This document shows positions 27,801 through 53,340 of a DNA stretch of 64,000 nucleotides, in pieces. How positions within the stretch are numbered: the stretch's first letter is position 1; every line of letters begins with the position of its first letter. The DNA is taken from assembly GCA_038109055.1 (NCBI GenBank), contig JAYNIM010000008.1, positions 30,866 to 94,865 on the forward strand, read 5' to 3'. Source of the DNA: a bacterium. GTDB taxonomy: Bacteria > Margulisbacteria > Marinamargulisbacteria > GCA-2716485 > JAYNIM01. The notes beneath the pieces are model-generated. The model was not told the DNA's origin. It worked only from the letters and a program-made list of their open reading frames with translations, and ran no database searches. The translations under genes and the position numbers were made by a program.

Positions 27801-28227
27801 GAGCAAGGTCACGCTGTTGTTGGATTGTCATCTGTTCAAGACAGGCAAGAAGTCGGTTTTGGGTGGCAATATCAATATCGAGTGAAGAAAGAGAATCCGC
27901 CTGAGAAACAAAAAAACGTTTGAGGGCAGCAAGGGTAGTAGGCGGTAAAGGGTCTGCCGAGGCCAGAGTTGTTAAGGCTGTTTTAATGCCATCACGATTC
28001 ATGTCATCATCAAAAGACAAGGCCTCAAGTTGCGAGGCCAAAGACTTTAAGGTATTGGACAAGTCAGGAGCAAGATCATAGTGTTTTGGCGCTAAGGTAT
28101 CAGATGAAGGGGTGGTCTGAGGAAAAGGAATAGGGGAAACAGGACGATTATTCTGATCGGGTGTAGACAACTCAAGCGAGTCGTCTTCAGGTTGCGCGAT
28201 AAACGATGAGTCAATATGTAATGCCAT
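12802..28227 (-). CDS. Giant 5141-aa protein: transglutaminase-like cysteine protease domain (BTLCP/LapG-like), repeated helical modules and a Leu-rich helical C-terminus
   Basis: Uninterrupted 15.4-kb ORF. DHWQ...GDCEDLAI (C241), GHMLV (H287) and YVLDP (D302). No obvious Sec signal peptide. Confidence 0.85.
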   Translation of the reverse strand: MALHIDSSFIAQPEDDSLELSTPDQNNRPVSPIPFPQTTPSSDTLAPKHYDLAPDLSNTLKSLASQLEALSFDDDMNRDGIKTALTTLASADPLPPTTLAALKRFFVSQADSLSSLDIDIATQNRLLACLEQMTIQQQRDLAPWDSLKSSFETTLSPRAWAFRKQQYLVNSQDGHIRDTVRQLFESGQLSAGMSIEELSVKLLNYVQKRFRYVSETSTHALGSTDHWQSIGETFATQQGDCEDLAIVQASLLLHVLEDYKGISFDQSRRMVQLAAGYAQTSDGPQGHMLVFLNLPEAQYVLDPSLGKGLEPRSDNDFDTVFVFNDQHFEQRQEIAANFHTAYGLGFAGESVNFGATPNASILAGHSPNRLQDTTPISSLYHYDPNDPQFSLHDHLFQAGANVEAAVFNKDWAEVFRMPHIETKGNSRSYMYDFVSYTEYLLYKQYIDADEDPSTAAVASSSTTDLTAYQAKLTEIRDKEAAIESSNTSIQTLISSVLSVVSRESQQGIYQFVDYQDSPRGIRFNNGTFYALPSLNSFENSGSTVNDLESAQTWQTNLTALVSDMTHFLSSHPDMFDLASFAQLPANAQTLITEITQFRQLVQELAALNDALAALTPPASALQTSSADNPDPDSSGGDYITKLKSVDLEEKLSLLRQDLGITGEANLMADLIQHGFITKVDNSSHYYIFDDDATRLNAIFPSSGLSANERSALLHGLHSILKNNKSRFMIRLDKTYYAYLKSKGQTDLFGNYTFFNVNLKYFKGPSTTDKISGAGEVDTYDSDEMDDYIQLLSFKDIGPSSDGYFDHPLDKLGTEIRDALTRVEMVVALASDFITTMEDAVANIPAAAAGDPQKRADTAEKEKILQGLNNTISALTQKINTTFTTLRNQIFESVKSINDVMHQLAELRIDQYARVEFENEGDDLNYAEMAANFIYGATTDLLDGLGVGFEKTRAEYRVHLQKLVTENTEKNMTFIYAYFTNFMTRIHQKSRLSYQDNSTLRSDSYTDKLIPSLDHALRDRSDQLLADPGSTFQYSNGRLQRDPLYGSDNLQDGKPDDAFWSQEDFTTSRYTQDFEGNKVRHFNLEHFFPAFDSFRTTFNTALDAVNPFNTSSDMAPIQRFVANFEYDRIDTQNIDFSTGSFQLPDLSGNLAAVASNPSASTPYRLFHPQMRDDRIRAGQDDSGRLFMRHQRGAMRSDVIYTPGTSAKDILGKSNDIDAEDVLSEDSSIVASILDQIQNGISSVTDLGSISQLLVPSEATRTSPFIDMNSFWYVDLLDKLNAYERFLNLLFISLSAIQQYQLDAAAGIAQAAGAQSRPVKTTVNKIMSSRFMAEFSLANQTLEKLNDQFKDYKEAINTLIKHQQEYYLNNLEQTLNITKSTVAITNFGIAQGLATALEVASKAWSAPGSPPPIPKQFSFPVFWRVGSGIVDRAFDEKEYNIHKTFYRYQTPYLLQYYPVLFPKNKWSPLYDQEDDLARVSLGRGGGFYGVDSLTNFSPSFSAANHNNAPYDSRHKPFDNSIYQGSNEATPDQFWMTNRLNGSLAARTDLLLGQYPKLDYRRNSLFFDGTPSAKNRLSQDFLAKSYFHLDDTRIALRRLAAGRIETLPTGTGFAGDDNNALLDYRIPHLEHAFPGRQETQKLPLLLPTGSGGFTKNSLALSMIEQSHFRGMQGLEMYFNIWMHYLETLSNTTASILQLFAKTSSRHQLTLSSLDQLRDGLQQAFSTLVSFETSLKDTFKSELDTLITAFKHNVDVNKTIRKKYYDFSESMLDFSLSLYALRQILNTGPAAYISPIPWMRAKKRLEAQDLILDLVESPLSHSQPYSDLRTTYFEQPRIDERMNTLADWRRTQSSAFDMELYQGNPGHHFYDEYNEPLYNSPSHPNQSRLNSVSSPHTFLPSYALRDLDISSDGQSATLSDEGQRHYHARDFLSLFHHHTSDSTPFFNGLHTQSMDNLRALSQPNINGNNGDSNYDELFSRSVSADPFYYPALTSRATRNNFISDSNSGSYVPNFGTFRSLEPLEEGQPNFINRSGRFENSSQTFKTGIFDSTKNDVRAYDGSIESQYDTDGSALFDFALNFSQLNFENLALMDEKMNVDYLQRLKLFQLINMYTDTLRKSVDKVIRDFSGVENRSSQGVMQQAMQALDAYSQVQQALSSAFVEELSAQVQLYNDYLTTKTTLTLETAVDTVYLAAISSYVIASAVGATAETKTSMKDKLEKLISAQRVVKGIKTVATAVVGLYRFFSLRDAASSKHSNLLTDFFPVDDTLAASTDDVSDTDDKKKNAALNREKDDGLRASNIVKNVGGSTVETKLNDAQLIKTSSMGTTIINRGALIKKRLELKKQKNRATMVMDIFDSAMQTLASASDVAGQGAVIGNAFSMSKKGMGAFQSLLSRKLDRLTAKLEQLKESRDRAVNDIRSIVFEFVTKMGVLGLKAFGGRVMSSSQGKKATAALSKKWLRIKFKLKFKNNLFSSNNSARKLKFIFNKLVFPQGFSENTGFLQLFIARILGNLAKSEGALQSSFDSEDMFQDGSDLGDAGGISGDQLPTADMENLMFEADLMKGNVQIRKELLKEQKALQGMFSTDISLSLQHFMQKVFERFLLKRYLNKTSPTSTTAAVFVNTLRAIPFLLLDKKKKKLRRLDIMHDKNLNNILFADGQEDDWNKGETPFINPLTRALAQKMGVDGKSALMTPQEVKEHAKKLANLDPINDLDKMPSDQKALFHPSDAELEEKFAEEWEKKTNPEKASEIRLEFQDLNTSQQNKFADDATRYGMAADDFRQNKPNTDIPLLDSIYKEVFIKREKEKEKENAVNAVKKRHKKKRMLLNGILAAASLPVSVPGEVLSYISSKINPKPDSTTAKVGDVTSHIIGGLGDILSSPFIESRLSRDAKDLSFKVGQKWSNSTIGRTFTNMHNWLVTDIPTNKPFNLLRRVLLSLSLPVSLIKLIFPHNWVYLTAFLDVLVNNSSHTKDSQALLKDGFVGLTGMTRHAWPMTDPNPTDPQDILKEAVRTEKDDRRHILQHGSAYEPSAEVGDMAGIATFANIKNIKTTVSDHFDDTDGQNKAPTSQELRVLMALGDVPSTTTSDDIKQDAAEGLSQIFDKLGLTAAIQSHKSKKEIHGILRYGLKIARDATDPGKREALLSGGTKLSDEQKQGLTSILPDKNAEDTLMAQLVGFIDPKTSAAEVRKHAVQLAAKHANANSTTASIKDSIAQFETAIHGFGKDSKGKGGFSKGLTGLKERREMVQKLTQSYDAYRDYADSSSSKYFRSKEARQILGDVLQTGSAHTFEDDDGSLVSKLKELSGDSDEGGLETTLEELLKLKSDDSTIFKKLREGLSQGSFNKNDVANFLSGNTTSQNLVQILGSTGLSNPLDSTLSNNIANVLNALGATDEPSFDSDTLSFEDIGLAYSMLSLNKSQLNWQMGAGGTSSINPKKALKLLHSSDSKQGLALYDDHIEALRKKKVGIDFEGTKKGFTFRTRKAKDPIASQLFDQLTQARLEVADEDDRENPAYLSRLPSEQTTHLTDHPSSFLKSLQRRADDSVNASVLAREFIGYMWGQMQYASGDPGSPQTIIEEKRALNALISLKKDFAILDKQTKERILEGVKNLNDQGGGGILRDETKRFLGHVLRGDSLAFNADIAQLSGFEDFDTEDEAYEVLRKKDKDEVDLFKRDQLVLRMEPYKKQAPDSPNPAGNAGGLAVAGPQNTQGPGTMAVAGPQNTQGPGTMAVAGSQNTQGPGTMAVAGSQTQGPVALAALGPQTTPTSAQAVSTDGSAPVPGAPVAESMAFAVENLAQEYAEKFAESDDAKDPAVASKIVSHAQAYIKKFQKHFSSLDKAESKRIEKLIQKYIKEPKDPGDVAINTFAIAASLDSIVANPSSPHILPQFDINHFMEQDEATATLRTAYTQFLSPTLRSKLSHLSDNLDSIDDDDPNTPHPKAQQRESHSSSEDTEDEDLLFDDRVDLAPLQLAPSSLSEDLVAALVDLSFASLSEDAMACFESVYALVVKALLSRFNDMGRPKALLALESLTPDSPPGTLQRQLIEDCFSLSCVDPSLASLFSLLEVAYVVSQWPQQSALLHVYLLYVTPLSQLQVWLQGHSSVTLSGSLRFDLTAYHSQRSLQVLQRLYTLAGDHAFVSDALSQSDTDFLALLSQPLTELAQRPFWLAACHAMAVFYEASDPCLTNRRLQVSLQRCYAFQEDLFGTGLHTVITARLDTQPSLLRLWQASGCWLAFLGSLSELEFSTLTSLLPEIDAALLKQLYTHCRTRSQLESVLEQPWSVFQDKKHLARIPTFLMTCPELLVKGLYYHPRYFVQFCLACAHFPHHKLYQDLFDLLPSSITDQLQPLLRHAVAILSCLHTPTPDHWLMMILARRMDQRHRLTMLWALWLLDSTLFTSVFTSFHGRISASLFHYLRLDTGQPLAASSCRSLFKSLKKEGYINASSYPTARLHEGVLQQHAPLQSLAASFGLHLRSLCQRLHLLRDQQERWVSLFSQHPPDGLHLLPAFSRFRHALTRMTGYFSSQTHDQFNRIDALALSGLDTVSTPTLGLSHLKELLSLLRPYEARFRLSVDKDVANVLTRRPCFTFAYVFQLWTLFDHLLRQHFMQQELGHTLESIWRSLSKQLLLFALGSHTIASDSEALSQLLSTLFSYDSKGFQHPFHWAFSRGTALQRSALFTMLLAIPSISLPDLLRCIGFVDPSKPYPAAIAAALPLDDAQLLLAYCDSGQGHLPAHCLLPALQSYYTSQPTAIGFLKTALFLNQAQPGLSVRDWQLFPVLLSIDTETLLGFLVLLDPTLRQTCLRFVQQKRHDISDLDTHLSQTLQDCHHGRCHTSGPLLLAQLCFLLRFTQHTDKAVVFASACQKLPAEHCSSLLDLILQDPRHSQALFLLFDSQEGLNTCFSQALCKTASSLPAKSWFMAFRSPSLKKALLDMALLNPQYAHLPALVIEQSKTASIPLDDVPELYLALGCQWASVTESVPFSSAELPPSPSPDDNSFIDTSTWMLRFSRSQGLSITQKKLFHHALRDPDFVSAFVRHLDQMLDTKVPEALIILQRLLSQGHFKHQSFFHTLWQSLLEIDPVLSSTFQATLTQHMTQPRSQQQPQDFQRLLTLLLPFLDSASKHQIKTYYVGRSSKKKAPQKNTV
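16981..17138 (-). repeat. In-frame 42-bp tandem repeat (about 3.7 copies, one unit 39 bp) encoding AVAGPQNTQGPGTM
   Basis: aggaccctgag recurs at 16981, 17020, 17062 and 17104 on the + strand. Confidence 0.95.
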
Positions 28228-28318: not shown

Positions 28319-28882
28319 TTAAGAAAGATTGAGCTTTTTTTCTTTATCCGCCTGAAAGGTATTAATACATGCATCGCCAAAATAGTGACGTAGCTCTTTT
28401 TCATGAGGCAGACTCAAACACGTCAATAAATAGGGCTGAATTTTACTAAAACCACGCGCGTTAATACAGTACCAAAAACGCGAGTGTATAGCGGGAGGAT
28501 GCTGCTCTAGGGCGGCAAGTAAGACGGGGGAAACATCATAGGGGCTATGGATCAGTCCTGCTTGAATCAAGGCAATATAGTCAGCCTTTTCACTACGGGC
28601 TAGTAAGGTAACTAAAAAATTCTGAGGGGTATAATGATGAACAGTCGCCAAGGTTGCAATACACAAGGTCTGAGCCAAGGTTGGAAAGGAATCAAAACGA
28701 GCACAGAGCTCAGGCAGTACAGAGGCCTGTTTATGACACAATATCTGAAGCGCCAAGCTAAGTTCTGCAGCAGAAGCATCTGATTGCAAGGTCTCAAACA
28801 AAAACTGGATGTCAGGCGCTTCTAACAAAAAACCATCCAAACAGCGTTCCTCAAGCAACAGTAAACGGGTTAATATGTCCAT
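28319..28882 (-). CDS. Hypothetical helical (HEAT-repeat-like) protein
   Basis: 187 aa of Leu/Ala-rich amphipathic helices; TGCTATACT extended -10 lies 10 nt upstream. Confidence 0.65.
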   Translation of the reverse strand: MDILTRLLLLEERCLDGFLLEAPDIQFLFETLQSDASAAELSLALQILCHKQASVLPELCARFDSFPTLAQTLCIATLATVHHYTPQNFLVTLLARSEKADYIALIQAGLIHSPYDVSPVLLAALEQHPPAIHSRFWYCINARGFSKIQPYLLTCLSLPHEKELRHYFGDACINTFQADKEKKLNLS

Positions 28883-28945: not shown

Positions 28946-31900
28946 CTAAGCAAATTGTCTCTGAATATAAGCTCGTCTTGAACGAGCTGCCGTGACAAGG
29001 CGTTTGGGAGCGGTATAAGGGGATATATCTTGAATATGAGGAAGGGGTAACCCTGTATGAGAAGAAAAGGAGTGCCCTGATCCAGGGTACGAAACTACCT
29101 GTTCGTGTGTAGGAAAAGGATGTGTGCCTGTATAGGTAGACCATCTTGAAGGGGTTTTCGGGACAGGGCGGCGGGGAAAACGAACGACTGGGGGATAAGA
29201 ATACCCACTATCAATTTTTCGACGACGGAGGGCTGCTGGTTGACGAGGCATTGAACAAGGAGGTAGAGAAGGAGCTGATGGAAATGCTGGTAAAGGACGT
29301 GTAGATCTGAAAGCGGGACGGTGGTCAAGATGACCCGCAGCAAAATCTGGGCTAGAAGGGGTTGAAAAGACCGAAGAACCTTCAGAGGCATCAGAACCAT
29401 CAGAGAGATACCCTGCAGTAGTGTTTAAACATGGGTTAAGGTAGCCTTGTTTTCTTTCAGACTCAGCCAGCTGCTCACAGACGGCCCGTCCATCCAAATC
29501 AGGATTTTGTATTAATTTATCCCAAAGTTTAACACAAGTAGAAGCATTTGGGCGCTTTTCAGGTCTTTGTCGAAGACAGGCAAAACAAAACTCTTGAGCC
29601 GCTTTTTCTAAGTAATTAGAAACAGGTCTTCTAGAAATGTCATTAACTAAGGCCGCATGGAACTCTTCAGGAGTGGGGCGATAGCGAATGTCACCGAAGT
29701 GGGTCTGAATAAATTGGGCTGTTAACTCACTAGGGTGTTGTTTTTCGCAGTCGAAAAAAAATGGAAATTGTGTGCCAGTCACAAGCTCATAAATACTCAG
29801 GCCCAATGCATAGATATCAGCCTCCTTGCGTGGCGCCATCTCGTCTTTTCTACTGGGTTCGGGGCCAGTGAGTGATGACCGGGTATATCCAGCATAATGA
29901 CGACCATTTAACTGCAAAGATGAAGCGCCAAAGTCAATAAACTGGACCTTGCCAGTAGTAGGATCTTGCATGATATTTTCAGATTTTATATCACCATGAA
30001 CAATGTTTTTTGCATGAAGGTCTGCCATGGACGCCAGAAGAGTTTTTACCTGAGACGAAAGGTGAATATTTGGTAGCTTATTTTTCTCTTTAAGCACCAT
30101 ATACAGTTCTTCACTGTCAGTGCGATAAACAGCTAGGACATCGTCCGGATTAGCCTGACATGTTGCCAAAATCTCAATTAAAGCCTCTTCATACGTACAC
30201 TCTCGATGAGTATGATTTCCTGCAGTGACTCTTTTTAAAATACAAGAGTCTTCTAACCTCTGACTAATGATTTGGGCATTTTTACCCTCAAACTGATAAA
30301 CACCAGGCGCGAGTTTGTTTGAATAGCTCTTAACCTCCTGTATATTTGTAATAGTTTGAAAAGGAATCTTAAGGTTATCGATCATTCGTTGAAATTGACG
30401 ATTGATCATATCTGAACCATGCTGATGAGCAGGACAAGACTTAGCTATTGGACGCTGAGGATGAACCTCATAGCGACCAGGGTGCACGGAATGTGTGGGC
30501 GGATGATCCAATCTACGCTCAACAGTTCTGTGCGTATCTACCCCTGTACGCTGAGAAGCGTATCCAGACCAAGGGGGTGCTGCACTACGACGCCCAGCTC
30601 TACGATGGGGCACTTCGCGTTCATAGGGATGGCCCCCAAATTCACGATATTTATGGCGAGCATGAGCATGACGATCAGCTGAGATAACACAGGCAAGCTC
30701 GGAGTTATCACTAGACCTGTGTGTATTATCTTTAAAAGAAGATTGTAAGGCCTGAATACTTTCCTGAAAGTTATCTAATAGTTTGGTAACCGTTTCGTGG
30801 TTTTCGTCATCCAAATCAGTCCGAAATATAGCCGATAAGTGTTGAGTCACGGTGTCACTGTCTAATGTTTGATCCAATAGTTGATCAAACAGGGTATAAA
30901 AGTCCGCCTTAGAAGCCTCAACAATAATTTGGACAGAAAGAGGGTTCGTCATACGAGAAAAGGGGAGAATTAAATTAGCTAACAAGGTTCGTTTATAGAT
31001 GTGGAATAAATCGTTATAATTCTTTGTTTTGGCGTCTAATTGGGCAGAATCCGAAAGATCATGACAATAATAGGTCTTGAGTGTACCAGGGGTTTGCTGC
31101 GCATTTCTTGGGATACTAAAACGACCTTCAAGTTGTTTTAATTGATGGGGGGATAGCGCCATTTCTCCAGCGTAGAATCCGAGGCCACCCTGGGCATGAT
31201 TGACTTGCCAATCAGTCCCACGTCCTATCTGGGAGAGAGTACCAACAATCACATTGGGACGCAGTAAGCCCTCTTCTACAAGTTTAGCATCAGCATCATT
31301 ATGCAAGGTGCCTTGATATAAAAAAGACCCTTTTAGTTGAGAATGTAGAGCTTTTGCTCGCTCTAGGGTATCAGTGGCAACCAAGATGGGTCTAGTAGAA
31401 CGTTTATGTTTCTCTTTCTCTTTCTCAATGGCTGAGATAACAGCCTGATCAGGATTGGAACATTGTTTGTGAGTAGTCTTAATATCTGACACTTCTCTAG
31501 GAGGAATAACAATATTGGTCGTCCTAGGAGAAAGAAGCTTTTGCATGACCTGTTGCGACCCTGCTTCTATACAAGATGAGTCAGTTGGGTCAGAGAAAGC
31601 GGTTGCAGAGATGCCTATCATTGAGTTAAATTGTTTCGCCATCTCAACATAAGGAACAGTCACTCCCCGTAAGGAAGGAGCTTTAGGCGTTATTCCATAC
31701 TGACATAAGAGAAGCCCATGAGTAATACCAGACATATAAGTCCCTTCAGAATAGCGGCCATCAGGCTTCATAGGGATTAAATCAAAACCGAGGCTATTTT
31801 CTAGCTCTCTATCATTTAAATCCTTAAGTTTACCCTCAAGTTCTCCATAAGCAGATTGTAGCGTTTCTTTGGTATAAGGAAATCCAAATTGGTTCATTTC

Positions 31901-33754
31901 GCAAACAAATTTTTCAGTGACCTGACTGACGGTTTCAGGCGAAGACGATGGGTTTATAGCCTGATACCACTCACAGTCCCTAAACTCTTTTAATAATTGT
32001 TCAAGATCATCTCTATCCTGTACAGGCTGAGCATGTCGGTTCATACATTCTATTAAGACCTGTGGCGCAGATTCTTGAATATAGTAGTCTCTATTTTCAA
32101 CGAAGGCACCTGAAAAAACTTGCTTTGCTTGATGTTCTAAAGATTTAATATAAGCATTAACCGTTTCCCAATCAGATATCCCACAAGCGGCTGATAGATA
32201 CCGTCTGATAGCTGATTTAATCTGAGGAGAAAAGGTAGGAGAGCGTTCAGCATGAATCTGCTCTATAATGTTGATGAGTGAGTCCGAGTCTTTGCGCTTT
32301 TCAGAGGAATAAGCACATTGATAGATGTCTGAACTATAGATCTCATCACATTCATCAATCAACGCATCAAATTGACGGATATCAAATACATCTTGTTTAG
32401 AATCAAGAGAACGTAGCTGTTCAAAAGCAAGTTCCGTAAATGTCGTATAATTAATCATAGATTGATGATAATCAGAATTAAAGGAAGCAGGTATCTGGAG
32501 TGTCTTAAATAGGGATTCAACACTTTTGAACCCTTGTTGAGCTAAGGGTAAGTGAGTTGTAATAACAACCACTTTTTGGCCCATCATTGCTTTAATAGCT
32601 GCTATAACAGCAAAGCAAAGTGTTTTCCCTTGGGCGGTATCCATTTGAACATTCATTAAGGACTTGTGGTTCTTGGGATCAAGTTGAGCGGTCAATGTCA
32701 GCCATACCATCGCAATTTGATTGATATGAAGTGGTTTACCAAGACTAGAGGCGGCTGCAGCATAAGCCTTTTGTAAATTGTGAAAAAGATCCTGATGTTT
32801 AGGCCTGATTTGACTTGGAGATTGAGGAGACGCAGATTGAAGATGAGAGATAACATCCTTTAGTTCCTTTATAGAATCTTCAGATAAAGGCGACTTAATG
32901 TCTTTATTAGCCTTAGCAAGACGAGCGAAAAATTTAGACTTGTCAAAAGAAGCGTGAGCTGATGATGAAGATGCGCGAGACATTGCAGATGTCGCCCTAG
33001 TCAAGAGAGAGGATGGACCTGCAGAAGAAACGGGAATTTGTTCCGGAGACCAGTGGACCTGTTTTCTGAAAGGATGAGATGCCGCAGAAGCAGCCGATGA
33101 CCTAGAACCGTGTCCAATACGGGGTAAAAAATGCTGCGTATCGGCAGAGTTTGTTCGATCGGAGCGGGTATAGGTACGACGAGTGTCACTAGATCTGTCT
33201 CTTTGTTTAAGTAAACGAGCATTTGACACAGCAGTGGGCCGTTTAGCCCGTTGAGATGCCGCAGAAGAGCGAGTAGGGGTTAACGATGACCTCATAACGG
33301 TAGAAGTTGTTTGATCAGAGAGAGTAGAGGTACGACGTCCATTTGACGCAGCAGTGGATCGTTTAGCCCGTTGAGATGCCGCAGAAGTACGAGAGTAAGA
33401 GCGTTGTCCATTATGGGTTAACGATGACCTCATAACGGCAGAAGTTGTTTGATCAGAGCAGGTATAGGTACGACGAGCATTTGACACAGCAGTGGGCCGT
33501 TTAGCCCGTTGAGATGCCGCAGAAGAGCGAGAGTTAGAGCGTTGTCCATTATGGGGTAAAGAAGACGGCGCTAAACGAGCAATAAAAGCATCACGCTCAG
33601 GGCGAGATAGTGTTGTATATGGAGGTTGTTGACGACGAACAGCTGTGGATCTGTTAAGTCTCCCTGAGCCTGCTGAAATTTTATTTTGTCGACCTGGAGT
33701 TCCTGTTACAGGTCTACGAGCTCCATAAGAAGTAGATTGATTTGATATAGTCAT
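28946..33754 (-). CDS. 1602-aa fusion: disordered repeat N-terminus, SecA-like DEAD ATPase and Ser/Thr kinase
   Basis: SecA-like motifs MDTAQGKT, VVVITTHLPLA, INYTTFTELAFEQLR, LIDECDEI, RPILVAT, IGRGTDW and QLEGR. Kinase motifs IVHGDIKSENIM, FIDFG, GPE and ADIYALG. GGGAGG SD. Confidence 0.85.
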   Translation of the reverse strand: MTISNQSTSYGARRPVTGTPGRQNKISAGSGRLNRSTAVRRQQPPYTTLSRPERDAFIARLAPSSLPHNGQRSNSRSSAASQRAKRPTAVSNARRTYTCSDQTTSAVMRSSLTHNGQRSYSRTSAASQRAKRSTAASNGRRTSTLSDQTTSTVMRSSLTPTRSSAASQRAKRPTAVSNARLLKQRDRSSDTRRTYTRSDRTNSADTQHFLPRIGHGSRSSAASAASHPFRKQVHWSPEQIPVSSAGPSSLLTRATSAMSRASSSSAHASFDKSKFFARLAKANKDIKSPLSEDSIKELKDVISHLQSASPQSPSQIRPKHQDLFHNLQKAYAAAASSLGKPLHINQIAMVWLTLTAQLDPKNHKSLMNVQMDTAQGKTLCFAVIAAIKAMMGQKVVVITTHLPLAQQGFKSVESLFKTLQIPASFNSDYHQSMINYTTFTELAFEQLRSLDSKQDVFDIRQFDALIDECDEIYSSDIYQCAYSSEKRKDSDSLINIIEQIHAERSPTFSPQIKSAIRRYLSAACGISDWETVNAYIKSLEHQAKQVFSGAFVENRDYYIQESAPQVLIECMNRHAQPVQDRDDLEQLLKEFRDCEWYQAINPSSSPETVSQVTEKFVCEMNQFGFPYTKETLQSAYGELEGKLKDLNDRELENSLGFDLIPMKPDGRYSEGTYMSGITHGLLLCQYGITPKAPSLRGVTVPYVEMAKQFNSMIGISATAFSDPTDSSCIEAGSQQVMQKLLSPRTTNIVIPPREVSDIKTTHKQCSNPDQAVISAIEKEKEKHKRSTRPILVATDTLERAKALHSQLKGSFLYQGTLHNDADAKLVEEGLLRPNVIVGTLSQIGRGTDWQVNHAQGGLGFYAGEMALSPHQLKQLEGRFSIPRNAQQTPGTLKTYYCHDLSDSAQLDAKTKNYNDLFHIYKRTLLANLILPFSRMTNPLSVQIIVEASKADFYTLFDQLLDQTLDSDTVTQHLSAIFRTDLDDENHETVTKLLDNFQESIQALQSSFKDNTHRSSDNSELACVISADRHAHARHKYREFGGHPYEREVPHRRAGRRSAAPPWSGYASQRTGVDTHRTVERRLDHPPTHSVHPGRYEVHPQRPIAKSCPAHQHGSDMINRQFQRMIDNLKIPFQTITNIQEVKSYSNKLAPGVYQFEGKNAQIISQRLEDSCILKRVTAGNHTHRECTYEEALIEILATCQANPDDVLAVYRTDSEELYMVLKEKNKLPNIHLSSQVKTLLASMADLHAKNIVHGDIKSENIMQDPTTGKVQFIDFGASSLQLNGRHYAGYTRSSLTGPEPSRKDEMAPRKEADIYALGLSIYELVTGTQFPFFFDCEKQHPSELTAQFIQTHFGDIRYRPTPEEFHAALVNDISRRPVSNYLEKAAQEFCFACLRQRPEKRPNASTCVKLWDKLIQNPDLDGRAVCEQLAESERKQGYLNPCLNTTAGYLSDGSDASEGSSVFSTPSSPDFAAGHLDHRPAFRSTRPLPAFPSAPSLPPCSMPRQPAALRRRKIDSGYSYPPVVRFPRRPVPKTPSRWSTYTGTHPFPTHEQVVSYPGSGHSFSSHTGLPLPHIQDISPYTAPKRLVTAARSRRAYIQRQFA
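33216..33555 (-). repeat. In-frame direct repeats (3 copies, 120- and 138-bp periods) encoding SAASQRAKR(P/S)TA...SDQTTS.VMRSSLT
   Basis: gtttagcccgttgagatgccgcagaag occurs at 33241, 33361 and 33499, with a further decayed copy toward 33070-33180. Confidence 0.92.
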
Positions 33755-41348: not shown

Positions 41349-42212
41349 CTACAATTTATTAATAAATCCTGATAATGTTTTACCCAAATCATCCATGACA
41401 CCCTGAACAGCAGTTGTTCCACGATTTAAGACATTAAGGTCTAAATTAATACGGGCAATATCCACGTTCGAAGATTCAAACTGAGCACCTAAAACTTTCC
41501 CATAGCGCGCATTTGTACCAGAAATTTTAGTATCAGAATAGCCAAATCCTGTATTCTCTCCAGAAGCAGCGGTAGCTGAAAAAGACGCACCATCAGAGCT
41601 ACCAAGACCTTGTTTATTTTGAAAAGTGGTTAATGCCAAGCGATATAATGGTGTTGCAGATTCTTCAGGGTTTTCTTTGGCACGTTCATAATTTGAGGCA
41701 AGAATACCGCCATCTAAAAATCCAATATCAACAGTATCATTCAATTGAATGGGGACAAGTTCAGTACTAGTTTGTCCTTTTTCATCAATTTTATAGCCAA
41801 AAACCACTCGGCCAAACATGTCAACCATATAACCTGAGTGAGGTTGTTTACGAAAACGCCCATTGCGTGTGTACACATAAGAGATAGCCCCACCATACTG
41901 AACTTGACTAACATCAGCGATAACAAAGAACCCCTCACCATTGATAGCCGCATCAAATTGGGTTCCGGTAACAATCGATCCTTGACCAAAGTCACGCGTT
42001 ACAGCACCTAAAGAAACACTAGAACCCAAATTCACCGGGTTTTGGGATTCTGTCCCACTGGTTAAGGCACGTTCATACATAGTAGTAAACACAGGAAATG
42101 AATACTTAAAGCCAGGGGTATTGTACTGATGCGAATTGGTAATGGCCACACGCAAGGCCCCTTCCATCGCAAAATACGCATTTTTAATATTAATATATAG
42201 ATCTAACATCAA
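41349..42212 (-). CDS. Flagellar rod/hook family protein (FlgG/FlgF/short FlgE-like) with divergent termini
   Basis: NTPGFK, RDFGQGSI, DAAINGEGFF, YTRNGRF, LALTTFQNKQGL and ESSNVD. Confidence 0.88.
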   Translation of the reverse strand: MMLDLYINIKNAYFAMEGALRVAITNSHQYNTPGFKYSFPVFTTMYERALTSGTESQNPVNLGSSVSLGAVTRDFGQGSIVTGTQFDAAINGEGFFVIADVSQVQYGGAISYVYTRNGRFRKQPHSGYMVDMFGRVVFGYKIDEKGQTSTELVPIQLNDTVDIGFLDGGILASNYERAKENPEESATPLYRLALTTFQNKQGLGSSDGASFSATAASGENTGFGYSDTKISGTNARYGKVLGAQFESSNVDIARINLDLNVLNRGTTAVQGVMDDLGKTLSGFINKL

Positions 42213-43999
42213 GCAGCCTCTGAGATTTGTTTTTCCTCTAATGACAAAGATTTAAACATGGAAGGGACAATCGCTGTTGAAATCGAACTTTCTTTTTTTA
42301 AACGCGTGAGTATCTTGTGTAATTTACGAGACTCATTTTTCAAGTGAGAGACATCAGGTTGTGCCTGAGACTGAACGTATAACTTTAAATACGCATCCTG
42401 AAGTACCGGGAAAACGCGACGATTAGCCTCATCTCGAATCATTTTTAAGTCCATCTTGCTTATAGTATAACCCAAGTGAGCCAATTGTTTGAGTAATTGG
42501 GCAATTTCAGACTGAATAAACTTAAAAACATCGCCAGCCAAGTCAGGTAACAAGGCCCTTTCTTCAAAATAATGACGCAAGCGAGACAATAACGAAAAGA
42601 TAGCCGCACGTTTAGCGTGCTCAGCCAAGGTATTCCATCGCTCTTCAGAAGAGGCAGCTTTTTTATGTTTGTGAAGATCATAGCGAAGTTTGATTTGCTT
42701 AAATAAAGAGGGGGTTGTGTATAGGCTATAAAATAACTGTCGAACTTGATTATCAGGATCACTACCTTCAAACATTGTGACGGTCGTAGGAGGTGATTTT
42801 TTTTTGCGTTGCCAATCACAATCAATCAATCCCAACGAATAAGGAACCTGAAAGAGACGTAAACCATGCAAATCAAGTTTGTGATTGAGACTTTGGGCAT
42901 AAGCTTGCGCTGGAAACTGTGAATTTTGTATCAAGGCATTAAAGCGATCCATAGCTGCCGCCAAAAATTTAGGGTCTAAACTATTCAGGCGAATATCAAT
43001 TAAGACCCTATCAAGTTCACTTGCGATAAAACTCCGTAATTCCGATTTTACATCATCTCGTAAGAATTGAAGCTCAAATTCGTGACTAGGATCTTGCTTT
43101 CCACTACGTTTAATCATCTGTCGAAAGACTTCGTATTGGTTCAAGGCATCCTGAGTAATAATGCCTTTCTTCATCTCATTAGCATCATAATACATAAGCG
43201 ATTCAAGAAAATGTTGTTTTAATTGTTTTTTTAAGTTTTTAGCCATAAAGGCCTTAACCCCCTGTTCCATTCCTTGTAAAAGCTTAGGCGAAAGACCATT
43301 TTTCTCTAAGGTTGATCGAGTATGCCTTATGGATTCTTTTTGATTTTTGTTATTTTCTAAGAGTGACTTAGCGAAAAGAACACCATAGCGGTCTAACTGA
43401 GGCTGTAGGTGTTTCGCTGAGCTGAGGGAAGGTGATGTCGAAACAGTGTTTTTTCGAAGCCGATCTGCACGTTTTGATTGTTTATGAAAATCCTGGGGGG
43501 AAAGAAGGCCTAATCCAAGTTTACTCTGCTGCTCGTGTTTATGTTGGGGAGCCACACGAGTCTTAACACGCATCTTCTGTTGCATTTTTTTGGAAATATG
43601 GGGCTGATCTATAAAAGGCTGAGAGATGGTGTCTTTGCGAGAGAGATCATTGGCATGTTGTTTGAGTTGTTGCAACATGCGTTTATTAAATGTTTGAGTT
43701 TGATATTGTTGAAATTTTTCGGCTATCCCTCGTGAAAGATCAGCAATGCCTACTTTTCGGTTGAGCAAATTAAGTGCCGAAGTCGGCGCTGTAGAACTGC
43801 TTTTTTGAGGGGTCGTTTCTTTGCCTTTGTGTTGAAACTCTTCTTTAGGGCGATGTTCACTATGCTCACCGGAGGTTGAAAGAAGTCCCTCGATGTATTT
43901 AGACTGACTTTTAGCTGTTTTATCATAGCTAATAAGTGTAAGATCGCTTTCTTCAAAAATAGAGTCTGAGTGTTCAGAAATACCCGCAACATCCATCAC
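42209..43999 (-). CDS. Hypothetical basic helical protein (596 aa)
   Basis: Long ORF with ATGA overlaps at both ends; low-complexity N-terminus. Confidence 0.8.
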   Translation of the reverse strand: MMDVAGISEHSDSIFEESDLTLISYDKTAKSQSKYIEGLLSTSGEHSEHRPKEEFQHKGKETTPQKSSSTAPTSALNLLNRKVGIADLSRGIAEKFQQYQTQTFNKRMLQQLKQHANDLSRKDTISQPFIDQPHISKKMQQKMRVKTRVAPQHKHEQQSKLGLGLLSPQDFHKQSKRADRLRKNTVSTSPSLSSAKHLQPQLDRYGVLFAKSLLENNKNQKESIRHTRSTLEKNGLSPKLLQGMEQGVKAFMAKNLKKQLKQHFLESLMYYDANEMKKGIITQDALNQYEVFRQMIKRSGKQDPSHEFELQFLRDDVKSELRSFIASELDRVLIDIRLNSLDPKFLAAAMDRFNALIQNSQFPAQAYAQSLNHKLDLHGLRLFQVPYSLGLIDCDWQRKKKSPPTTVTMFEGSDPDNQVRQLFYSLYTTPSLFKQIKLRYDLHKHKKAASSEERWNTLAEHAKRAAIFSLLSRLRHYFEERALLPDLAGDVFKFIQSEIAQLLKQLAHLGYTISKMDLKMIRDEANRRVFPVLQDAYLKLYVQSQAQPDVSHLKNESRKLHKILTRLKKESSISTAIVPSMFKSLSLEEKQISEAA

Positions 44000-44214: not shown

Positions 44215-45036
44215 CTACAAATAGGAGCCATCCTCTTTAATATTAACGTGATGACCTGCATTTCCTTCCCACAAATTACCAATAAAGTACTCTATATTTT
44301 TACATTCATCTTCAAATTCATCTCTAATTTTTTTAGATTGAGTAATTTTTTCCTCCAATAATCGTGATTTAGTCCAATACCCGCCATCTAATTTTTGCAT
44401 TTGTTGGAGCAATTTTTGTTGTAATAGCATCATTTTTGCACGAACAGGTCGAGTAAGTTTCTTTTTACCATACAACAGTTCAGCCAATTCTAAATTGTAG
44501 ATATTTTCTGCCATAAGGTGTATGTTTTCTTCAAAAACATCTTGTTTTGCCTGCTGTTTTAAGGCGGCTAAGTCCTGGTTGTTTAAGCCAGAAAAATGCA
44601 GCATTTTATTTAAAACAGTAGATTTAAATCCGGCAAAATCCGATAAGAAATCGTTATGTGAATAATATTGTTTAAGGGTATCAAGGTAATCCTGGGTAAG
44701 TTGTTCTTTTCGTTGTTCAGGACGAGTGTCATAACCAATTAGACGCCATAAGGTATCCTGTTGAAAAAATTTTCTATCAGGGTCTTTAACAGAGACTGTT
44801 TCTTCGGAAACATGATCCTGAAGAGATAAATCAACACGATCTTCAAAGAGTTCTTTTTCTTTTTGAGCAACCTGAAAGGCTTGAACCCCCTGCTCAATCG
44901 TTTTAGTATCAGACACACGTTCTTTTTGTTTTAACAATGCCTGCTGTTTTGCTTTGATTTCCTCTTTAATCTTTTTATGTTGAGGATGCTCTTCAAAAAC
45001 AGAGGGGTCAGTGGCAAAAGCAAGAGATGGGTTCAT
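44215..45036 (-). CDS. Hypothetical coiled-coil protein (273 aa)
   Basis: ATGA overlap with the upstream gene; GAGG SD; K/E/Q-rich helices. Confidence 0.8.
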   Translation of the reverse strand: MNPSLAFATDPSVFEEHPQHKKIKEEIKAKQQALLKQKERVSDTKTIEQGVQAFQVAQKEKELFEDRVDLSLQDHVSEETVSVKDPDRKFFQQDTLWRLIGYDTRPEQRKEQLTQDYLDTLKQYYSHNDFLSDFAGFKSTVLNKMLHFSGLNNQDLAALKQQAKQDVFEENIHLMAENIYNLELAELLYGKKKLTRPVRAKMMLLQQKLLQQMQKLDGGYWTKSRLLEEKITQSKKIRDEFEDECKNIEYFIGNLWEGNAGHHVNIKEDGSYL

Positions 45037-47663
45037 TTCTTTTTACCTCGACTTCTCATCATGAGTTGTTTGATTTCCTGTTTTTTAGCACGATTGGCTT
45101 CTTTATTTTTCTTGGAAATTTCTTGCAGTTGGGCCTGTTGCTGATCTTTTTTATCCTTGTTACGTTTTTTTCGGTTTTCAGCAACCTGTTTATAGTATGC
45201 TTGGGCTGATTCTTTGTTTTTTTGCTTAACTTCTGCAATATATTCTTTTTTGACAAGCTCTTTTTTCTCTTTTTCTTCTTTCATTTGTTGATCATGTTCA
45301 TCTTTAGATAGGGAGCTATAGATAAGATTTTCAAAGTGCTTAATAAAAATAAATTCTTCGAGATCTTCTCGGAATTGATCCGTTGCGGTTTGCATGGTCT
45401 CAGTTTCAAAGTAACGGGGAGTCGCCACGTAGTCGACAGTCACACGATACATATCACTAGAGGGTTTGATAATACGTTTAGTTGCAGGGTCCCATAACCC
45501 TTGGTTGTCGACTAACACTTCGATAGGGTGTTCAACAATTTTAAGGCCCTGATGGCTCAAAACCTTGCTGTCTTCTGTCATAAACGCAGTGACCAAAGGT
45601 TCTAAGTGGGCTAATTGACGGCGAACCTGGGTATGAAAAGCAACAAGGTCTTCCGAGTTCTCACTATAAATGCGTAAGGGTTCATGTTCTTTTTTGACAT
45701 ATAGTTTGCTATTTTCATCATACTCCATCCAAGAAGCAAGTGGAGAAACGTCCATATAGAACCCCTGTTCACTTTCTTGAATATGAGGAGCCCCAGTATA
45801 TGTATCGTGTTGAGTATCAAACCCAGTCATAGACTTAAACATATCCATAAGGATACTGTAGGCCTTATGAAGGTTATCTCGTTTTTCATCAAAGGTATCC
45901 CCTTTTTGAGGCAAAGAGAGAATATCAAGAAAATGAAAGGAATCTCCATAGGCACTTTCAATTTGAATATCATAACGTTGATTTTGTTTAGACGATGAAT
46001 CTAAAAGATCAAAATTTACCTCCTTAGAACCATAAACAGCTTCTAATAAGGCATTTTTTACCAAGAGGTCGTCGTTTTGATCAGGAAAAATTGGGCGACT
46101 TAAATCAGGGAGATTAGAGGGTTGAACCGTCCCATCATTTGAAAGAATGCCTCGTTCTATTAACTTAGAAAAAATATGAGCTCCCACAACAATATCAGAG
46201 GCATCTTTATGTAAGTGACTGGTGACCACTTTGAACGACCCTTGAAGAGGAGAGACGACAACTTTATTATAATGCATCAACGCTTTAGCTAAACCTTGCT
46301 CTTTAAAGTCTAATAAAACCCCTGCATCTGTATAAGGATTGATGCTCTGGTCAAAATACTGACGGCGAAGCCACTGTTGATTATGAAAGACCATTTGTAA
46401 TGGTTGAAAGTCCAATGGGTTAACAGTCTGCCAATCAACCGTATCAAAAAATGCAGTTACCTGAGCGATAGGTCCTTCATAGAGGAAAGAATCAGAAGGC
46501 GGCTCAAGAGGACGATAGCGAGTTTTGAGAGTTTCAACACGTTGACTGATGGTCACTAACAAGGCTTCAGCTTCTTCAGTTTTGTCTGCTTGATTATATA
46601 AATAATATAAATCACCCAGAGTAGAATCATCCGGGGCTCCATCTATTTGGTACAATGCCATAGAAATTTCCTTCTCAGTTAATCGTTGTGTATCAATATC
46701 ATCTAATAGATTAGCTAGACGTTTGCTATGTATGAGCACCTGTTCAGCATTAAGATCATGAGAAGAGTCTCGGAGAGCCCCATCGATCTGAGAGATCTCG
46801 GAAACACTGCCGAAGAGGTGGCGGGTCGTTTTTTCGAGATTTTTGATATTAGAACGGTGGCGATGCAAATACGAGTAAAATTGTTCGGCGTCCCAATCTT
46901 GGAATTCACGATCAAGCAACACTTGGTGCATGTTTTCATAAATTGGGACCGTTTGACTCTTATTATCTAAATAAATATCGGGAACGTCTGTCATCTGGAC
47001 ATCTTGTTTAACAATGAGATCCAAAGAACGTTGTACATTATCATAATGTGCCTGACCTAATATATCCAAGGTATTGGTATTCTGTGCAAAGTAATAATCT
47101 TGATAAATATCTTTATTGAGATAGTCATGTAAGCGTTCACCTTTCAACGAAAAGTTTCGTTCATTAACAGGTCCATGAAGTTGGATGTCATGGGGGGATC
47201 CATAACTAATCACATCGTATTCAAATTCATAAGATGGTTTTTTAGAACTAGGGAGGGCAAATCGAGCATAAAGTTCTTTCACAAGCACATCAGGGTCTTT
47301 CCCAGCTGCCATACCTGCTTCAAATTCAGCATCAACAAGATCTTTATATTCAAAATAATTGCGATAAAAATCATAGCTTAGGCTATCCACATTTTCAAAA
47401 TTAAGTTTTTTACCAGAACGAGCCCCGTCCATAAGTTCTGCATGACGCAGTTCTTCAAAGGGAATCTGTTGAGAAATATTATTAAGGGAAGACCCCATCC
47501 AATAAATAAACGAAGACCGTTGGTCAGAGTCTGGTAACGGACCTTGAGAGGTAATCAGACGATCTTGGTAGACATCCAAGATCATAGGGAAACGATTCCC
47601 AAACTCAACATTTTTGAGTCGCCTCTGCATTTCTTGAGGGTCCCAATGATTAAAGATGGACAT
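45033..47663 (-). CDS. Hypothetical protein (876 aa), acidic Tyr-rich body with a C-terminal K/Q/E coiled coil
   Basis: Long ORF with an AGGAG SD. Confidence 0.82.
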   Translation of the reverse strand: MSIFNHWDPQEMQRRLKNVEFGNRFPMILDVYQDRLITSQGPLPDSDQRSSFIYWMGSSLNNISQQIPFEELRHAELMDGARSGKKLNFENVDSLSYDFYRNYFEYKDLVDAEFEAGMAAGKDPDVLVKELYARFALPSSKKPSYEFEYDVISYGSPHDIQLHGPVNERNFSLKGERLHDYLNKDIYQDYYFAQNTNTLDILGQAHYDNVQRSLDLIVKQDVQMTDVPDIYLDNKSQTVPIYENMHQVLLDREFQDWDAEQFYSYLHRHRSNIKNLEKTTRHLFGSVSEISQIDGALRDSSHDLNAEQVLIHSKRLANLLDDIDTQRLTEKEISMALYQIDGAPDDSTLGDLYYLYNQADKTEEAEALLVTISQRVETLKTRYRPLEPPSDSFLYEGPIAQVTAFFDTVDWQTVNPLDFQPLQMVFHNQQWLRRQYFDQSINPYTDAGVLLDFKEQGLAKALMHYNKVVVSPLQGSFKVVTSHLHKDASDIVVGAHIFSKLIERGILSNDGTVQPSNLPDLSRPIFPDQNDDLLVKNALLEAVYGSKEVNFDLLDSSSKQNQRYDIQIESAYGDSFHFLDILSLPQKGDTFDEKRDNLHKAYSILMDMFKSMTGFDTQHDTYTGAPHIQESEQGFYMDVSPLASWMEYDENSKLYVKKEHEPLRIYSENSEDLVAFHTQVRRQLAHLEPLVTAFMTEDSKVLSHQGLKIVEHPIEVLVDNQGLWDPATKRIIKPSSDMYRVTVDYVATPRYFETETMQTATDQFREDLEEFIFIKHFENLIYSSLSKDEHDQQMKEEKEKKELVKKEYIAEVKQKNKESAQAYYKQVAENRKKRNKDKKDQQQAQLQEISKKNKEANRAKKQEIKQLMMRSRGKKK

Positions 47664-47686: not shown

Positions 47687-48205
47687 TTATCCACCACTCA
47701 TACCAGCAGATAATTTCCGTTCTATTTTTAACCCCATTTCTGGTAAGCCTTCAGTAATGTTATAGGTCGTATTGATCATCTGCATAATGACATTCATTTG
47801 CATCAGGCCCCCCATACTGGACCAATCTTCGATAACACCCCAGACAGGGTGGTCAATACGACGGTCTGTGGGGTCATTAATTTCATCAATGAGATCCATC
47901 ATACTATCAAAGTAGTTTGAAACAGCTTCAGATTTTTCTTGTGCAAAATCATAATCTCTTGTAATGGCGTATTTGAAGTCAATCCATTGTGTTAAAGCAG
48001 GCGATGTAGAACCTTCATTTTCGGCATTTGTTAACTGAATTCGAAGGTCAAATTCAAAGCTATCCGGGGTACCCGTAAATGTTTCATCAAATACAACATT
48101 GACATTAAGATTAGGCTGAGAAAGCTCTGTAACAATTTCAGCCGTATGTACCTCAGCAGGTGAACTGGGAGGCGTGATAGATGTGTTTGATGGAATAAGT
48201 GCCAT
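47687..48205 (-). CDS. Hypothetical protein (172 aa) with an inner-rod/needle-like C-terminal helix
   Basis: AAGGGG SD. The C-terminal about 45 aa align without gaps to the upstream 136-aa protein. The functional label is inference. Confidence 0.7.
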   Translation of the reverse strand: MALIPSNTSITPPSSPAEVHTAEIVTELSQPNLNVNVVFDETFTGTPDSFEFDLRIQLTNAENEGSTSPALTQWIDFKYAITRDYDFAQEKSEAVSNYFDSMMDLIDEINDPTDRRIDHPVWGVIEDWSSMGGLMQMNVIMQMINTTYNITEGLPEMGLKIERKLSAGMSGG

Positions 48206-48218
48206 AATAAAACCCCTT

Positions 48219-48245
48219 CAAGGCTGCGAGAGTTACGCAGCCTTG
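48219..48245 (-). other. Intercistronic stem-loop
   Basis: Perfect 10-bp stem CAAGGCTGCG/CGCAGCCTTG with a 7-nt loop and no immediate U-tract on the minus strand. Confidence 0.8.
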
Positions 48246-48257
48246 TAATTAAATAAT

Positions 48258-48668
48258 TTATCTTCCTTTCGCAGCAGTACCAATCTCGCCAGCAATTGAA
48301 GTTGCCTTCGATGTCGTTGCCTCGATAATACCTTTCTTAACTTGAAATTTCATATTGATTTCTTGCAAGGTAACACTTGTTTCCAAGAGTCCACCCATTG
48401 TACTTGTATTTGAACTAGCTGCCGAAGTACCTTGGGCAGTACCAGTACCAGCATTTTGATTGGTCCAAGCCGCAATTTCAAAAGAAACCGCCTTTGTCCA
48501 CTCATCCCCTGTCGCTCTGGCTTCACCTTTAATTTCTTCGTAGTTAGCCAGACTTGTAACCTGGTCTTGACCGTTTACAATGAAATTTTGGTTAAATGAC
48601 TGATCTAATTCGCCTCCCGCATCACCAAAAAGAATTTCATCCATATTTTGTCCAAAATATTCAGCCAT
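48258..48668 (-). CDS. Hypothetical protein (136 aa), filament/needle-subunit-like
   Basis: Perfect AGGAGG SD. G/A/T/S/N-rich and lacking Cys, His and Pro. The functional label is inference. Confidence 0.75.
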   Translation of the reverse strand: MAEYFGQNMDEILFGDAGGELDQSFNQNFIVNGQDQVTSLANYEEIKGEARATGDEWTKAVSFEIAAWTNQNAGTGTAQGTSAASSNTSTMGGLLETSVTLQEINMKFQVKKGIIEATTSKATSIAGEIGTAAKGR

Positions 48669-48731
48669 AAAAAACCTCCTGTATTAATGTAGTCATAATA
48701 ATCCTCCTCATAAATGTTGTTCTCATATAAG

Positions 48732-52671: not shown

Positions 52672-53079
52672 TTATCGCTTTTTTTGTTTCTTAACGATGC
52701 CTTGCTTTTTTTTCTGTTGACGCCTTAAATCAATGTGTTTTGCTTCAGCACGTTTCATGAAACTAGAAAGCTTATACTCAAAATTACCATCCTTAGGCGC
52801 TGAAGATACTGCTTTAGGGGTGACAGGGTTTTCTTTTTCCTTCACTTGTTTCATCGATAGTTCTAGTTTGCCTTGTTTATTCCTAGAAACCACCTTAACA
52901 GTCACGTCATCACCCAATGACACATATTCCTCTATATTAGAGATATAATCATGAGATAATTCTGAAATATGAACCAAACCAACTTCGGTGTTTTCTAGTT
53001 TAACAAAGGCCCCAAACTTAGTGACATTGGTGACTTCCCCTTTTAAAATTTGACCAATAAGTGAATCTTCGTCAGCCAT
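52672..53079 (-). CDS. S1 RNA-binding domain protein (YabR/YugI-like) with a basic tail
   Basis: GEVTNVTKFGAFV, GLVHISE, LELSMK and FEYKLSSFMK. Confidence 0.9.
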   Translation of the reverse strand: MADEDSLIGQILKGEVTNVTKFGAFVKLENTEVGLVHISELSHDYISNIEEYVSLGDDVTVKVVSRNKQGKLELSMKQVKEKENPVTPKAVSSAPKDGNFEYKLSSFMKRAEAKHIDLRRQQKKKQGIVKKQKKR

Positions 53080-53082
53080 GAT

Positions 53083-53340
53083 TTATAAAGAAGCGGGGCT
53101 CTCAATCTGTTTAATAGACAGTTCCAATTTTCCCTGAGGGTTTCTAGAGACAACTTTAACCTTTACAGATTCATTGACAGAAAGGTGGTCTTCTATATTA
53201 GAAACAAAATCTTTGGATATTTCCGAAATATGAACCAACCCAACCTCACCATTGGGCAACTTAATAAACGCCCCAAATTTAACAATATTATTGACCGAGC
53301 CTTCAACAATTTGACCAATAATAGATTCAGATTCATTCAT
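53083..53340 (-). CDS. Stand-alone S1 RNA-binding domain protein
   Basis: GSVNNIVKFGAFI, GLVHISEI and LELSIK; GAGG SD. Confidence 0.9.
   Translation of the reverse strand: MNESESIIGQIVEGSVNNIVKFGAFIKLPNGEVGLVHISEISKDFVSNIEDHLSVNESVKVKVVSRNPQGKLELSIKQIESPASL

Follow-up and report, generated by a model that had tools for sequence, protein, structure and literature searches.

The two genes described here, A and B, lie on the minus strand of a 64,000-nucleotide window (the whole stretch of DNA that was analysed) from a Margulisbacteria genome of 1.8 Mb that is 93% complete and that we call G000. Both open reading frames proposed by a first-pass annotation, which had worked from the sequence alone, are indeed present, and they stand at the head of an operon with the order A-B-C-D-E-F (Table 1). 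The A protein was correctly described as lacking cysteine, histidine and proline, and glycine, alanine, threonine, serine and asparagine make up 49% of its residues. None of the proteins C, D and E has a hydrophobic 19-mer above 1.0.

Table 1. Features of the operon, of the host genome and of related loci; bare numbers are window positions, and L, G and C numbers are our labels for loci, genomes and contigs.
Feature	Position	Strand	Length	Description
Gene A	48258..48668	(-)	136 aa	predicted hairpin of two helices, 43-76 and 91-134; likely major filament subunit
Gene B	47687..48205	(-)	172 aa	predicted hairpin, helices 87-110 and 131-170; paralogous to A; probably a minor subunit of inner-rod type
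Shine-Dalgarno GGAGG	48675..48679	(-)		6 bases 5' of the A start
Stem-loop between A and B	48219..48245	(-)		perfect 10-bp stem, 7-base loop; -18.5 kcal/mol, z -5.4
Gene C	45033..47663	(-)	876 aa	no family match; length varies among relatives; tip or cap candidate, by inference only
Gene D	44215..45036	(-)	273 aa	conserved operon member; no family match; split into two genes in several relatives
Gene E	42209..43999	(-)	596 aa	no family match; best operon marker
Gene F	41349..42212	(-)	287 aa	rod-length axial protein of the FlgE/FlgG family; not long enough to be a full hook protein
Giant gene	12802..28227	(-)	5141 aa	candidate substrate or translocator
Gene preceding the giant gene	28319..28882	(-)	187 aa	
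SecA-DEAD plus protein-kinase protein	28946..33754	(-)	1602 aa	candidate effector
Two tandem small S1-domain-like proteins	52672..53340	(-)	135 and 85 aa	recognised by eye
Ubiquitin hydrolase plus NADAR protein	L006:7710-10832			candidate effector near the basal-body cluster
NADAR protein	L006:11748-15686			candidate effector near the basal-body cluster
MotA/MotB modules	L186:4380-8564, L187:3100-5500, L188:2193-5052			G000 C2 122-126 kb, C1 39-41 kb, C2 149-152 kb
Sigma factor, FlhB C-terminal and FlgF-like extras	L005:14683-15408, L003:8305-8904, L006:39-410, L189:6929-7738			
Three tandem A copies	L124 (G035), L212 (G019)			
Two tandem B-type genes	L106, L110, L116, L118, L119, L136, L156			
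Gene with CMIVKNE start between D and E	L197, L200, L201, L203, L204, L206-L208, L210-L211		315-400 aa	
Extra small genes upstream of A	L197, L200, L202-L204, L206, L207, L209, L215, L216		65-105 aa	Saganbacteria-type genomes

The likeness of the two proteins had been noticed as a gapless alignment with a recurring residue pattern, and this alignment is exact over 42 residues, 11 of them identical. BLASTP of A against B gives an E value of 8e-6, and the best ungapped BLOSUM62 score, 62, is reached by none of 1000 shuffles of B (shuffle maximum 50), which rules out chance similarity. Among the 3538 six-frame ORFs of the genome the two are reciprocal best non-self matches, if weak ones (phmmer E 0.035-0.05). 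When the A and B families are compared as profiles, they align over 63 columns (probability 91.5, E 8.4e-7) with a score of 37.8, which is significant against a column-shuffle maximum of 13.9 and near the 36.7 obtained for SctF against SctI; the mutual similarity that the first-pass annotation had named as a check is thus borne out, and by these comparisons A and B are paralogues. The likeness had been confined to the C-terminal helix and the N-termini had been called unrelated; the helix stands but the limit does not, since the family profiles also align across the first helix, which leaves as unrelated just the N-terminal extensions of about 40 aa (A) and about 70 aa (B). Most orthologues lack these extensions, compact forms being mostly 83-105 aa long for A and mostly 94-121 aa for B, with relatives overall usually at 84-115 aa. 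Because the A of the window is only 11-24% identical to the compact A forms, its orthology with them rests on position and profile alignment.

A single-protein search of 61 relatives matched only the window itself, so profiles were used to find relatives, the pair being first located with a B profile of three sequences. At E<=0.01, iterated profiles recover A in 31 and B in 38 of 146 genomes, a few of them marginally, and E is found in 127 of the 146 and in all 72 high-quality Margulisbacteria genomes. The tandem order is conserved: in 14 of 20 E regions from more distantly related genomes, two small genes in tandem precede C and D, B stands by itself in three, and a contig end or no pair is met in three, these assignments being made by position, size and weak scores. 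A profile of six Saganbacteria-type A sequences reached the gene in only two of the 146 genomes, with two more marginal matches in long frames, so that in distant genomes A was recognised by its size and its place in the operon. The broad A profile retrieved 225 homologous proteins; among the 120 listed, none carries a Pfam domain and the named ones are Marinamargulisbacteria, a group whose named records have an FlhA about 60-73% identical to that of G000. In four of the relatives examined gene F comes after E, and in others it lies nearby or beside export genes.

Several relatives carry additional genes in or next to the operon. Two B-type genes in tandem occur in at least seven genomes, and one or two extra small genes, possibly chaperones or regulators, lie upstream of A in Saganbacteria-type genomes. 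Many distant relatives have, between D and E, a gene with a CMIVKNE start, which we take to be that of glycosyltransferase family 2; by analogy with the flagellin glycosyltransferases that stand beside flagellin, the filament proposed below may be glycosylated.

At 31 of 38 loci the spacer 3' of A is structured, judged by comparison with mononucleotide shuffles alone (z<=-2), and the stem-loop after A likely terminates or stabilises the transcript to the advantage of A over the downstream genes. Two genomes hold three tandem copies of A, and strong expression signals together with tandem copies suggest a high-copy polymer. The earlier proposal that A is the major and B the minor polymer subunit agrees with these data as to stoichiometry, polymerisation itself being a prediction. 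Expression values come from 'Ruthmannia eludens', an intracellular margulisbacterium of Trichoplax, whose expression table ranks genes 769 and 768 seventh and ninth of about 1460 (21,554 and 20,530 TPM; PMC6784892); five and six places away from the 'FlgE' gene 763, these two would occupy the A and B positions, judged by gene numbering alone and with gene 768 as the nearer one. In the parts of that source used here, the authors' remark on gene 769 is 'porin?', the 21 table rows containing 'flagell' comprise basal-body and export genes, several of them expressed, and no flagellin, and thin tubes are described that join the bacterial cells to the vacuole membrane (PMC6784892). These tubes could be type IV pili.

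Away from the window, in three clusters, G000 encodes the export genes FlhA, FlhB, FliP, FliQ, FliR, FliO, FliH, FliI and FliJ and the base, rod and ring genes FliN, FliM-like, FliF, FliE, FlgB, FlgC, FlgF, FlgG, FlgA, FlgH and FlgI, as well as FliK. Every export and ring protein of this set scores higher against the flagellar model than against the corresponding Sct model (FlhA, 769.5 against 655.9 for SctV), and the presence of rod and P/L ring genes is likewise a flagellar trait. Searches of G000 for flagellin/FlgL, the hook cap FlgD, the junction protein FlgK and the filament cap FliD found none of these. Full-length FlgE was not found either: five genomes give two to four Flg_bbr_C matches each, all in frames shorter than 300 aa. 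No secretin accompanies the type III clusters, the three secretins of G000 lying on other contigs or far away; an AscD query detected no SctD, FlgH and FlgI being present instead, and seven single proteobacterial queries for tip, translocon and gatekeeper proteins, families that diverge fast, had no match. The host machine is thus no injectisome but a basal body of flagellar type that has a rod and P/L rings, a point that the first-pass annotation had missed. The same picture holds for the phylum, in which, among 72 high-quality genomes, FlgI is found in 70, flagellin in 11, FlgD in 10 and MotB_plug in 27. Incomplete assembly can be rejected as the cause of the missing flagellin, since most good genomes are alike, including G060, which consists of a single contig.

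Some further flagellar-type genes have been kept in G000. Three MotA/MotB pairs each lie beside a gene with a FliG_C domain, an arrangement unexplained in a cell without flagellin; one of these modules adds a FliF_C-like gene and a full-length FliG, and two have TPR genes. Although flagellin is missing, the genome also retains an additional FlgF-like gene, a separate protein made of the FlhB C-terminal part, and two sigma factors of FliA type, which may direct transcription of the A operon.

This machine is separate from the true flagellum. Two FlhA copies are present in all five flagellated genomes checked and two FlgI copies in all 10 high-quality FlgD-positive genomes, so flagellated relatives possess a second machine; in G057, for example, one FlhA is 65% and the flagellar FlhA 38.5% identical to the FlhA of G000. 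We built unrooted FlhA/SctV trees from 36 rows and then from 26 of those rows, using quick searches with SH-aLRT support only; seven proteobacterial SctV were included, and chlamydial and myxobacterial SctV were left out. The second Margulisbacteria copy forms a branch of its own (SH-aLRT 100), and a further branch separates second copies and SctV together from all 11-12 flagellar FlhA (SH-aLRT 97). The AU test under LG+G4 rejects a clade that would unite the second FlhA with the flagellar copies of the same phylum (p 0.008; p 0.019 with Firmicutes added), for groups that were named after the first tree had been seen. The sampled sequences suggest that the second Margulisbacteria FlhA is sister to the injectisomes.

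As the first-pass annotation had expected, AlphaFold2 models both A and B as helix-turn-helix hairpins with a long C-terminal helix (mean pLDDT 71.6 and 69.7, helices mostly 80-90), the model of B containing a small beta-hairpin within its turn. The likeness to type III needle proteins is clearest in the ESM Atlas language-model search, where the compact G009 orthologues, and not the window proteins, served as queries. With the A orthologue, 23 of 30 matches are PF09392 (T3SS_needle_F) clusters (best 0.92, 195-198 shared features), and with the B orthologue 22 of 30 (best 0.95), to be read against a baseline in which shuffled proteins reach 0.9 in 4-10 of 100 cases and 0.95 in 1 of 100; since A and B are related, the two results are not independent. 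The A/B orthologues also reach an unnamed Chlamydiota cluster at 0.89 and a PF09392/PF17401 cluster at 0.88 and 0.92.

Family models and profiles give much less. A Pfam scan at E<=10 matched PF09392 or PF17401 in none of 31 A and none of 41 B members, NCBIfam needle and rod models matched none of 10 A members, and needle/rod HMMs run against five genomes did not find the A/B genes, their PF09392 matches lying elsewhere and below the cut-off. The first-pass annotation had also been reminded of chlamydial CdsF; DUF5407, which we take to be the CdsF family, had no match in the five genomes searched, and DUF6854 matched five of 41 B members in Pfam (best E 0.0034). In hhalign comparisons with seven SctF and seven SctI, all proteobacterial and from plasmid records, the A family scored 11.2-11.7 against the seven SctF, within the shuffle range. 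The B family scored 17.8 (E 0.016) against SctI with one alignment, FliE being equal at 17.9; with a broader alignment it scored 12.6 (E 0.13) against SctI, gave E 0.021 against SctF, and matched the pooled SctF and SctI at E 0.002, the best of 15 targets, in the register of the turn plus last helix. The profile comparison that the first-pass annotation had called for is thus weakly positive for B (E 0.002-0.13) and null for A.

Searches by fold and against known structures add little. Foldseek placed chains of Shigella 8axk (export core, inner rod and needle) at ranks 1 and 2 for A, with E values of 0.9 and 1.2 that are not significant; nothing was found at E<=0.001 for either protein, and B had no matches. 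VIA-align returned only generic hairpins for A and B, WXG100 proteins included, with no needle chain in the listed top 50, and PDB sequence searches with A3, A4, A12 and A13 and with the C, D and E profiles yielded unrelated weak matches or none. The turn before the last helix reads T-L-G-T-M in the A family and T-x-G-G-L in the B family, and the proline turn of the fetched SctF and SctI (PSNP, NPES) is absent from both, A having no proline. The suspected kinship with SctF and SctI is thus partly supported: the hairpins, the tandem paralogues, a type III host genome without flagellin and the needle clusters of the Atlas speak for it, while Pfam and NCBIfam, the profile and fold comparisons and the missing proline turn do not bear it out. 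That A and B work like a needle and an inner rod is better supported than that they are members of SctF/SctI.

Our preferred reading, to which we give a probability of about 65%, is that A and B belong to a type III system that does not serve motility, A as the major subunit of its filament and B as a minor one of inner-rod type. In such a system the FliPQR/FlhAB/FliHIJ apparatus would export a rod of FliE and FlgBCFG, and this rod would cross the wall and the outer membrane through the P and L rings and not through a secretin. F, the short FlgE-like protein, would then link the rod to the filament together with a small number of B subunits, many copies of A would form a thin, hollow, needle-like filament that leaves through the P/L rings, FliK and FlhB would set its length, and C, D and E would cap, chaperone or gate it. 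The filament would not be used for swimming; it would touch a host or partner cell and probably deliver proteins to it.

Candidates for delivered proteins are named here with that proposal in mind. The 5141-aa protein, whose first 4999 aa match no Pfam family and whose gene follows the 187-aa gene, is a candidate substrate or translocator. Its conserved N-terminal part (about residues 150-360) bears a GDCED motif, presumably that of transglutaminase-like cysteine proteases, and it contains three weakly hydrophobic segments. In G009 and G044 homologues of the 5141-aa/187-aa pair are directly divergent from A, and in other relatives similar genes of 180-210 aa face A. Three further candidate effectors, one in the window and two near the basal-body cluster, carry eukaryote-like domains, and the window also contains the two tandem S1-domain-like genes listed in Table 1.

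What else could a conserved pair of small hairpins do beside such a base? They might be secreted substrates, plugs or chaperone-like hairpins that act in small soluble complexes and build no filament, comparable to the WXG100 pairs of type VII systems. Such pairs do appear among the generic fold matches (EsxAB at Z 8.2 for A, CFP10-ESAT6 at Z 6.5 for B), and A and B have no significant sequence link to SctF; yet the W-x-G motif occurs in neither protein, both orthologues lead to needle clusters in the ESM Atlas, a rod/hook-family gene ends or accompanies the operon, and the machine has no other candidate external polymer, so that we regard this explanation as unlikely. Membership of the WXG100 family proper is rejected, as neither of the two tryptophans of A nor any of the three of B lies in the motif and Pfam gives no match. 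Phage structural proteins are rejected as well, there being no phage genes nearby and the operon being conserved with flagellar-type genes.

Nor do we give much weight to the idea that A builds the filament of an appendage that rotates and has no flagellin, driven by the separate MotAB/FliG modules and used for motion or as a probe instead of for secretion. In its favour, 70 of the 72 good genomes retain the P and L rings, the bushings of a flagellum, G000 has its three MotAB pairs with FliG_C-domain neighbours, and an FlgE-like gene lies within the operon. Set against this, MotB_plug is present in 27 of the 72 genomes that all have E, G060 and G128 possess the operon and the basal body with no MotB match, the FliG of the basal body lacks the torque domain FliG_C (270 aa in G000, 151 aa in G128), and flagellated relatives keep the second machine beside a true flagellum. 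We find least probable that the machine is a Buchnera-like reduced base for secretion, in which A and B would be internal adapters, derived from FliE or from the D0 coil of FlgB/FlgL, that remain inside the cell. This would agree with the flagellar scores of the export and ring proteins, with the near equality of B against FliE and against SctI in one comparison (17.9 and 17.8), and with the hook, rod and filament chains low in the fold list of B (Z 5.8-6.0); but the system coexists with a complete flagellum, its origin as an in-phylum duplicate is rejected, FliE and FlgB are separately present, and the expression signals and tandem copies of A point to a high-copy polymer.

The machine also alters how this whole phylum, which lies next to Cyanobacteria, is to be read, since of its members annotated as flagellated most have no flagellin; supplementary file 11 of one study calls Margulisbacteria motile by polar flagella (PMC6349859), and the main text of another does not mention them (PMC13277936). 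Our search, whose scope excluded subscription journals and bioRxiv supplements, found no paper describing such a system in Margulisbacteria. The origin of the injectisome from the flagellum, and the source of its needle, is a long-standing question, for which the described Myxococcales intermediate has neither rod nor needle. Flagellar rod and rings combined with a needle/inner-rod-like pair would represent either a testable earlier step or a convergent needle on a flagellar base. A universal contact machine would also fit a symbiotic or parasitic life of Margulisbacteria, and the A and B subunits are small enough for expression, polymerisation and imaging. Only tentatively do we put forward a bolder view, to which we would not give even odds: that the type III machine of Margulisbacteria is of a third kind and a living intermediate between flagellum and injectisome, which is sister to the SctV lineage, acquired true SctF and SctI homologues in place of hook and flagellin on a rod with P/L rings before any secretin, is ancestral to the phylum and serves contact with hosts or partners.

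Compared with the SctF/SctI pairs of known injectisomes (MxiH/MxiI and PrgI/PrgJ type; PF09392), A and B are likewise small paralogous helical hairpins encoded in tandem with the major subunit first, an order also seen at mxiH-mxiI and at five more SPI-1-type loci that were retrieved. They differ in their turn, which is of the S/T-x-G-G or G-T kind and not a proline turn, and in having no HMM match; their genes are not beside sctJ/sctD, the host machine has a flagellar rod and P/L rings, and no secretin is found in the three type III clusters examined here. With the flagellum the machine shares FliPQR, FlhAB, FliHIJ, FliF, FliE, FlgBCFG, FlgAHI, FliK, FliO and a FliA-like sigma factor, and it departs from it in having no detected flagellin, FlgL, FlgK, FlgD, FliD or full-length FlgE, a FliG without FliG_C, and an FlhA on a separate branch.

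The type III system of Myxococcales has been proposed as a non-motile, secretin-less intermediate (Abby and Rocha 2012, PMC3459982), and the Margulisbacteria machine, inferred here to be non-motile, is like it also in having no secretin. According to the portion of that study drawn on here, the Myxococcales systems are without FlgBCDEK, FliEG, FlgH, MotAB and SctF (PMC3459982); the Margulisbacteria machine, by contrast, keeps FlgB, FlgC, FliE, a short FliG, FlgH and FlgI and has the needle-like pair. Because these rod and ring genes are kept, it stands nearer the flagellum by gene content. The same portion infers an earliest injectisome with SctF and without a secretin (PMC3459982), and the Margulisbacteria machine fits a step before it. 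As far as the consulted part of its description goes, the basal body of Buchnera, which keeps rod, rings and export gate, has lost flagellin and is thought to secrete (PMC8109811), is the nearest analogue of a base without flagellin. That base is a reduced remnant of the only flagellum of its cell, with no added subunit described in that part (PMC8109811), whereas the Margulisbacteria machine is phylum-wide, a second system with an operon of its own, and in some lineages stands beside a full flagellum.
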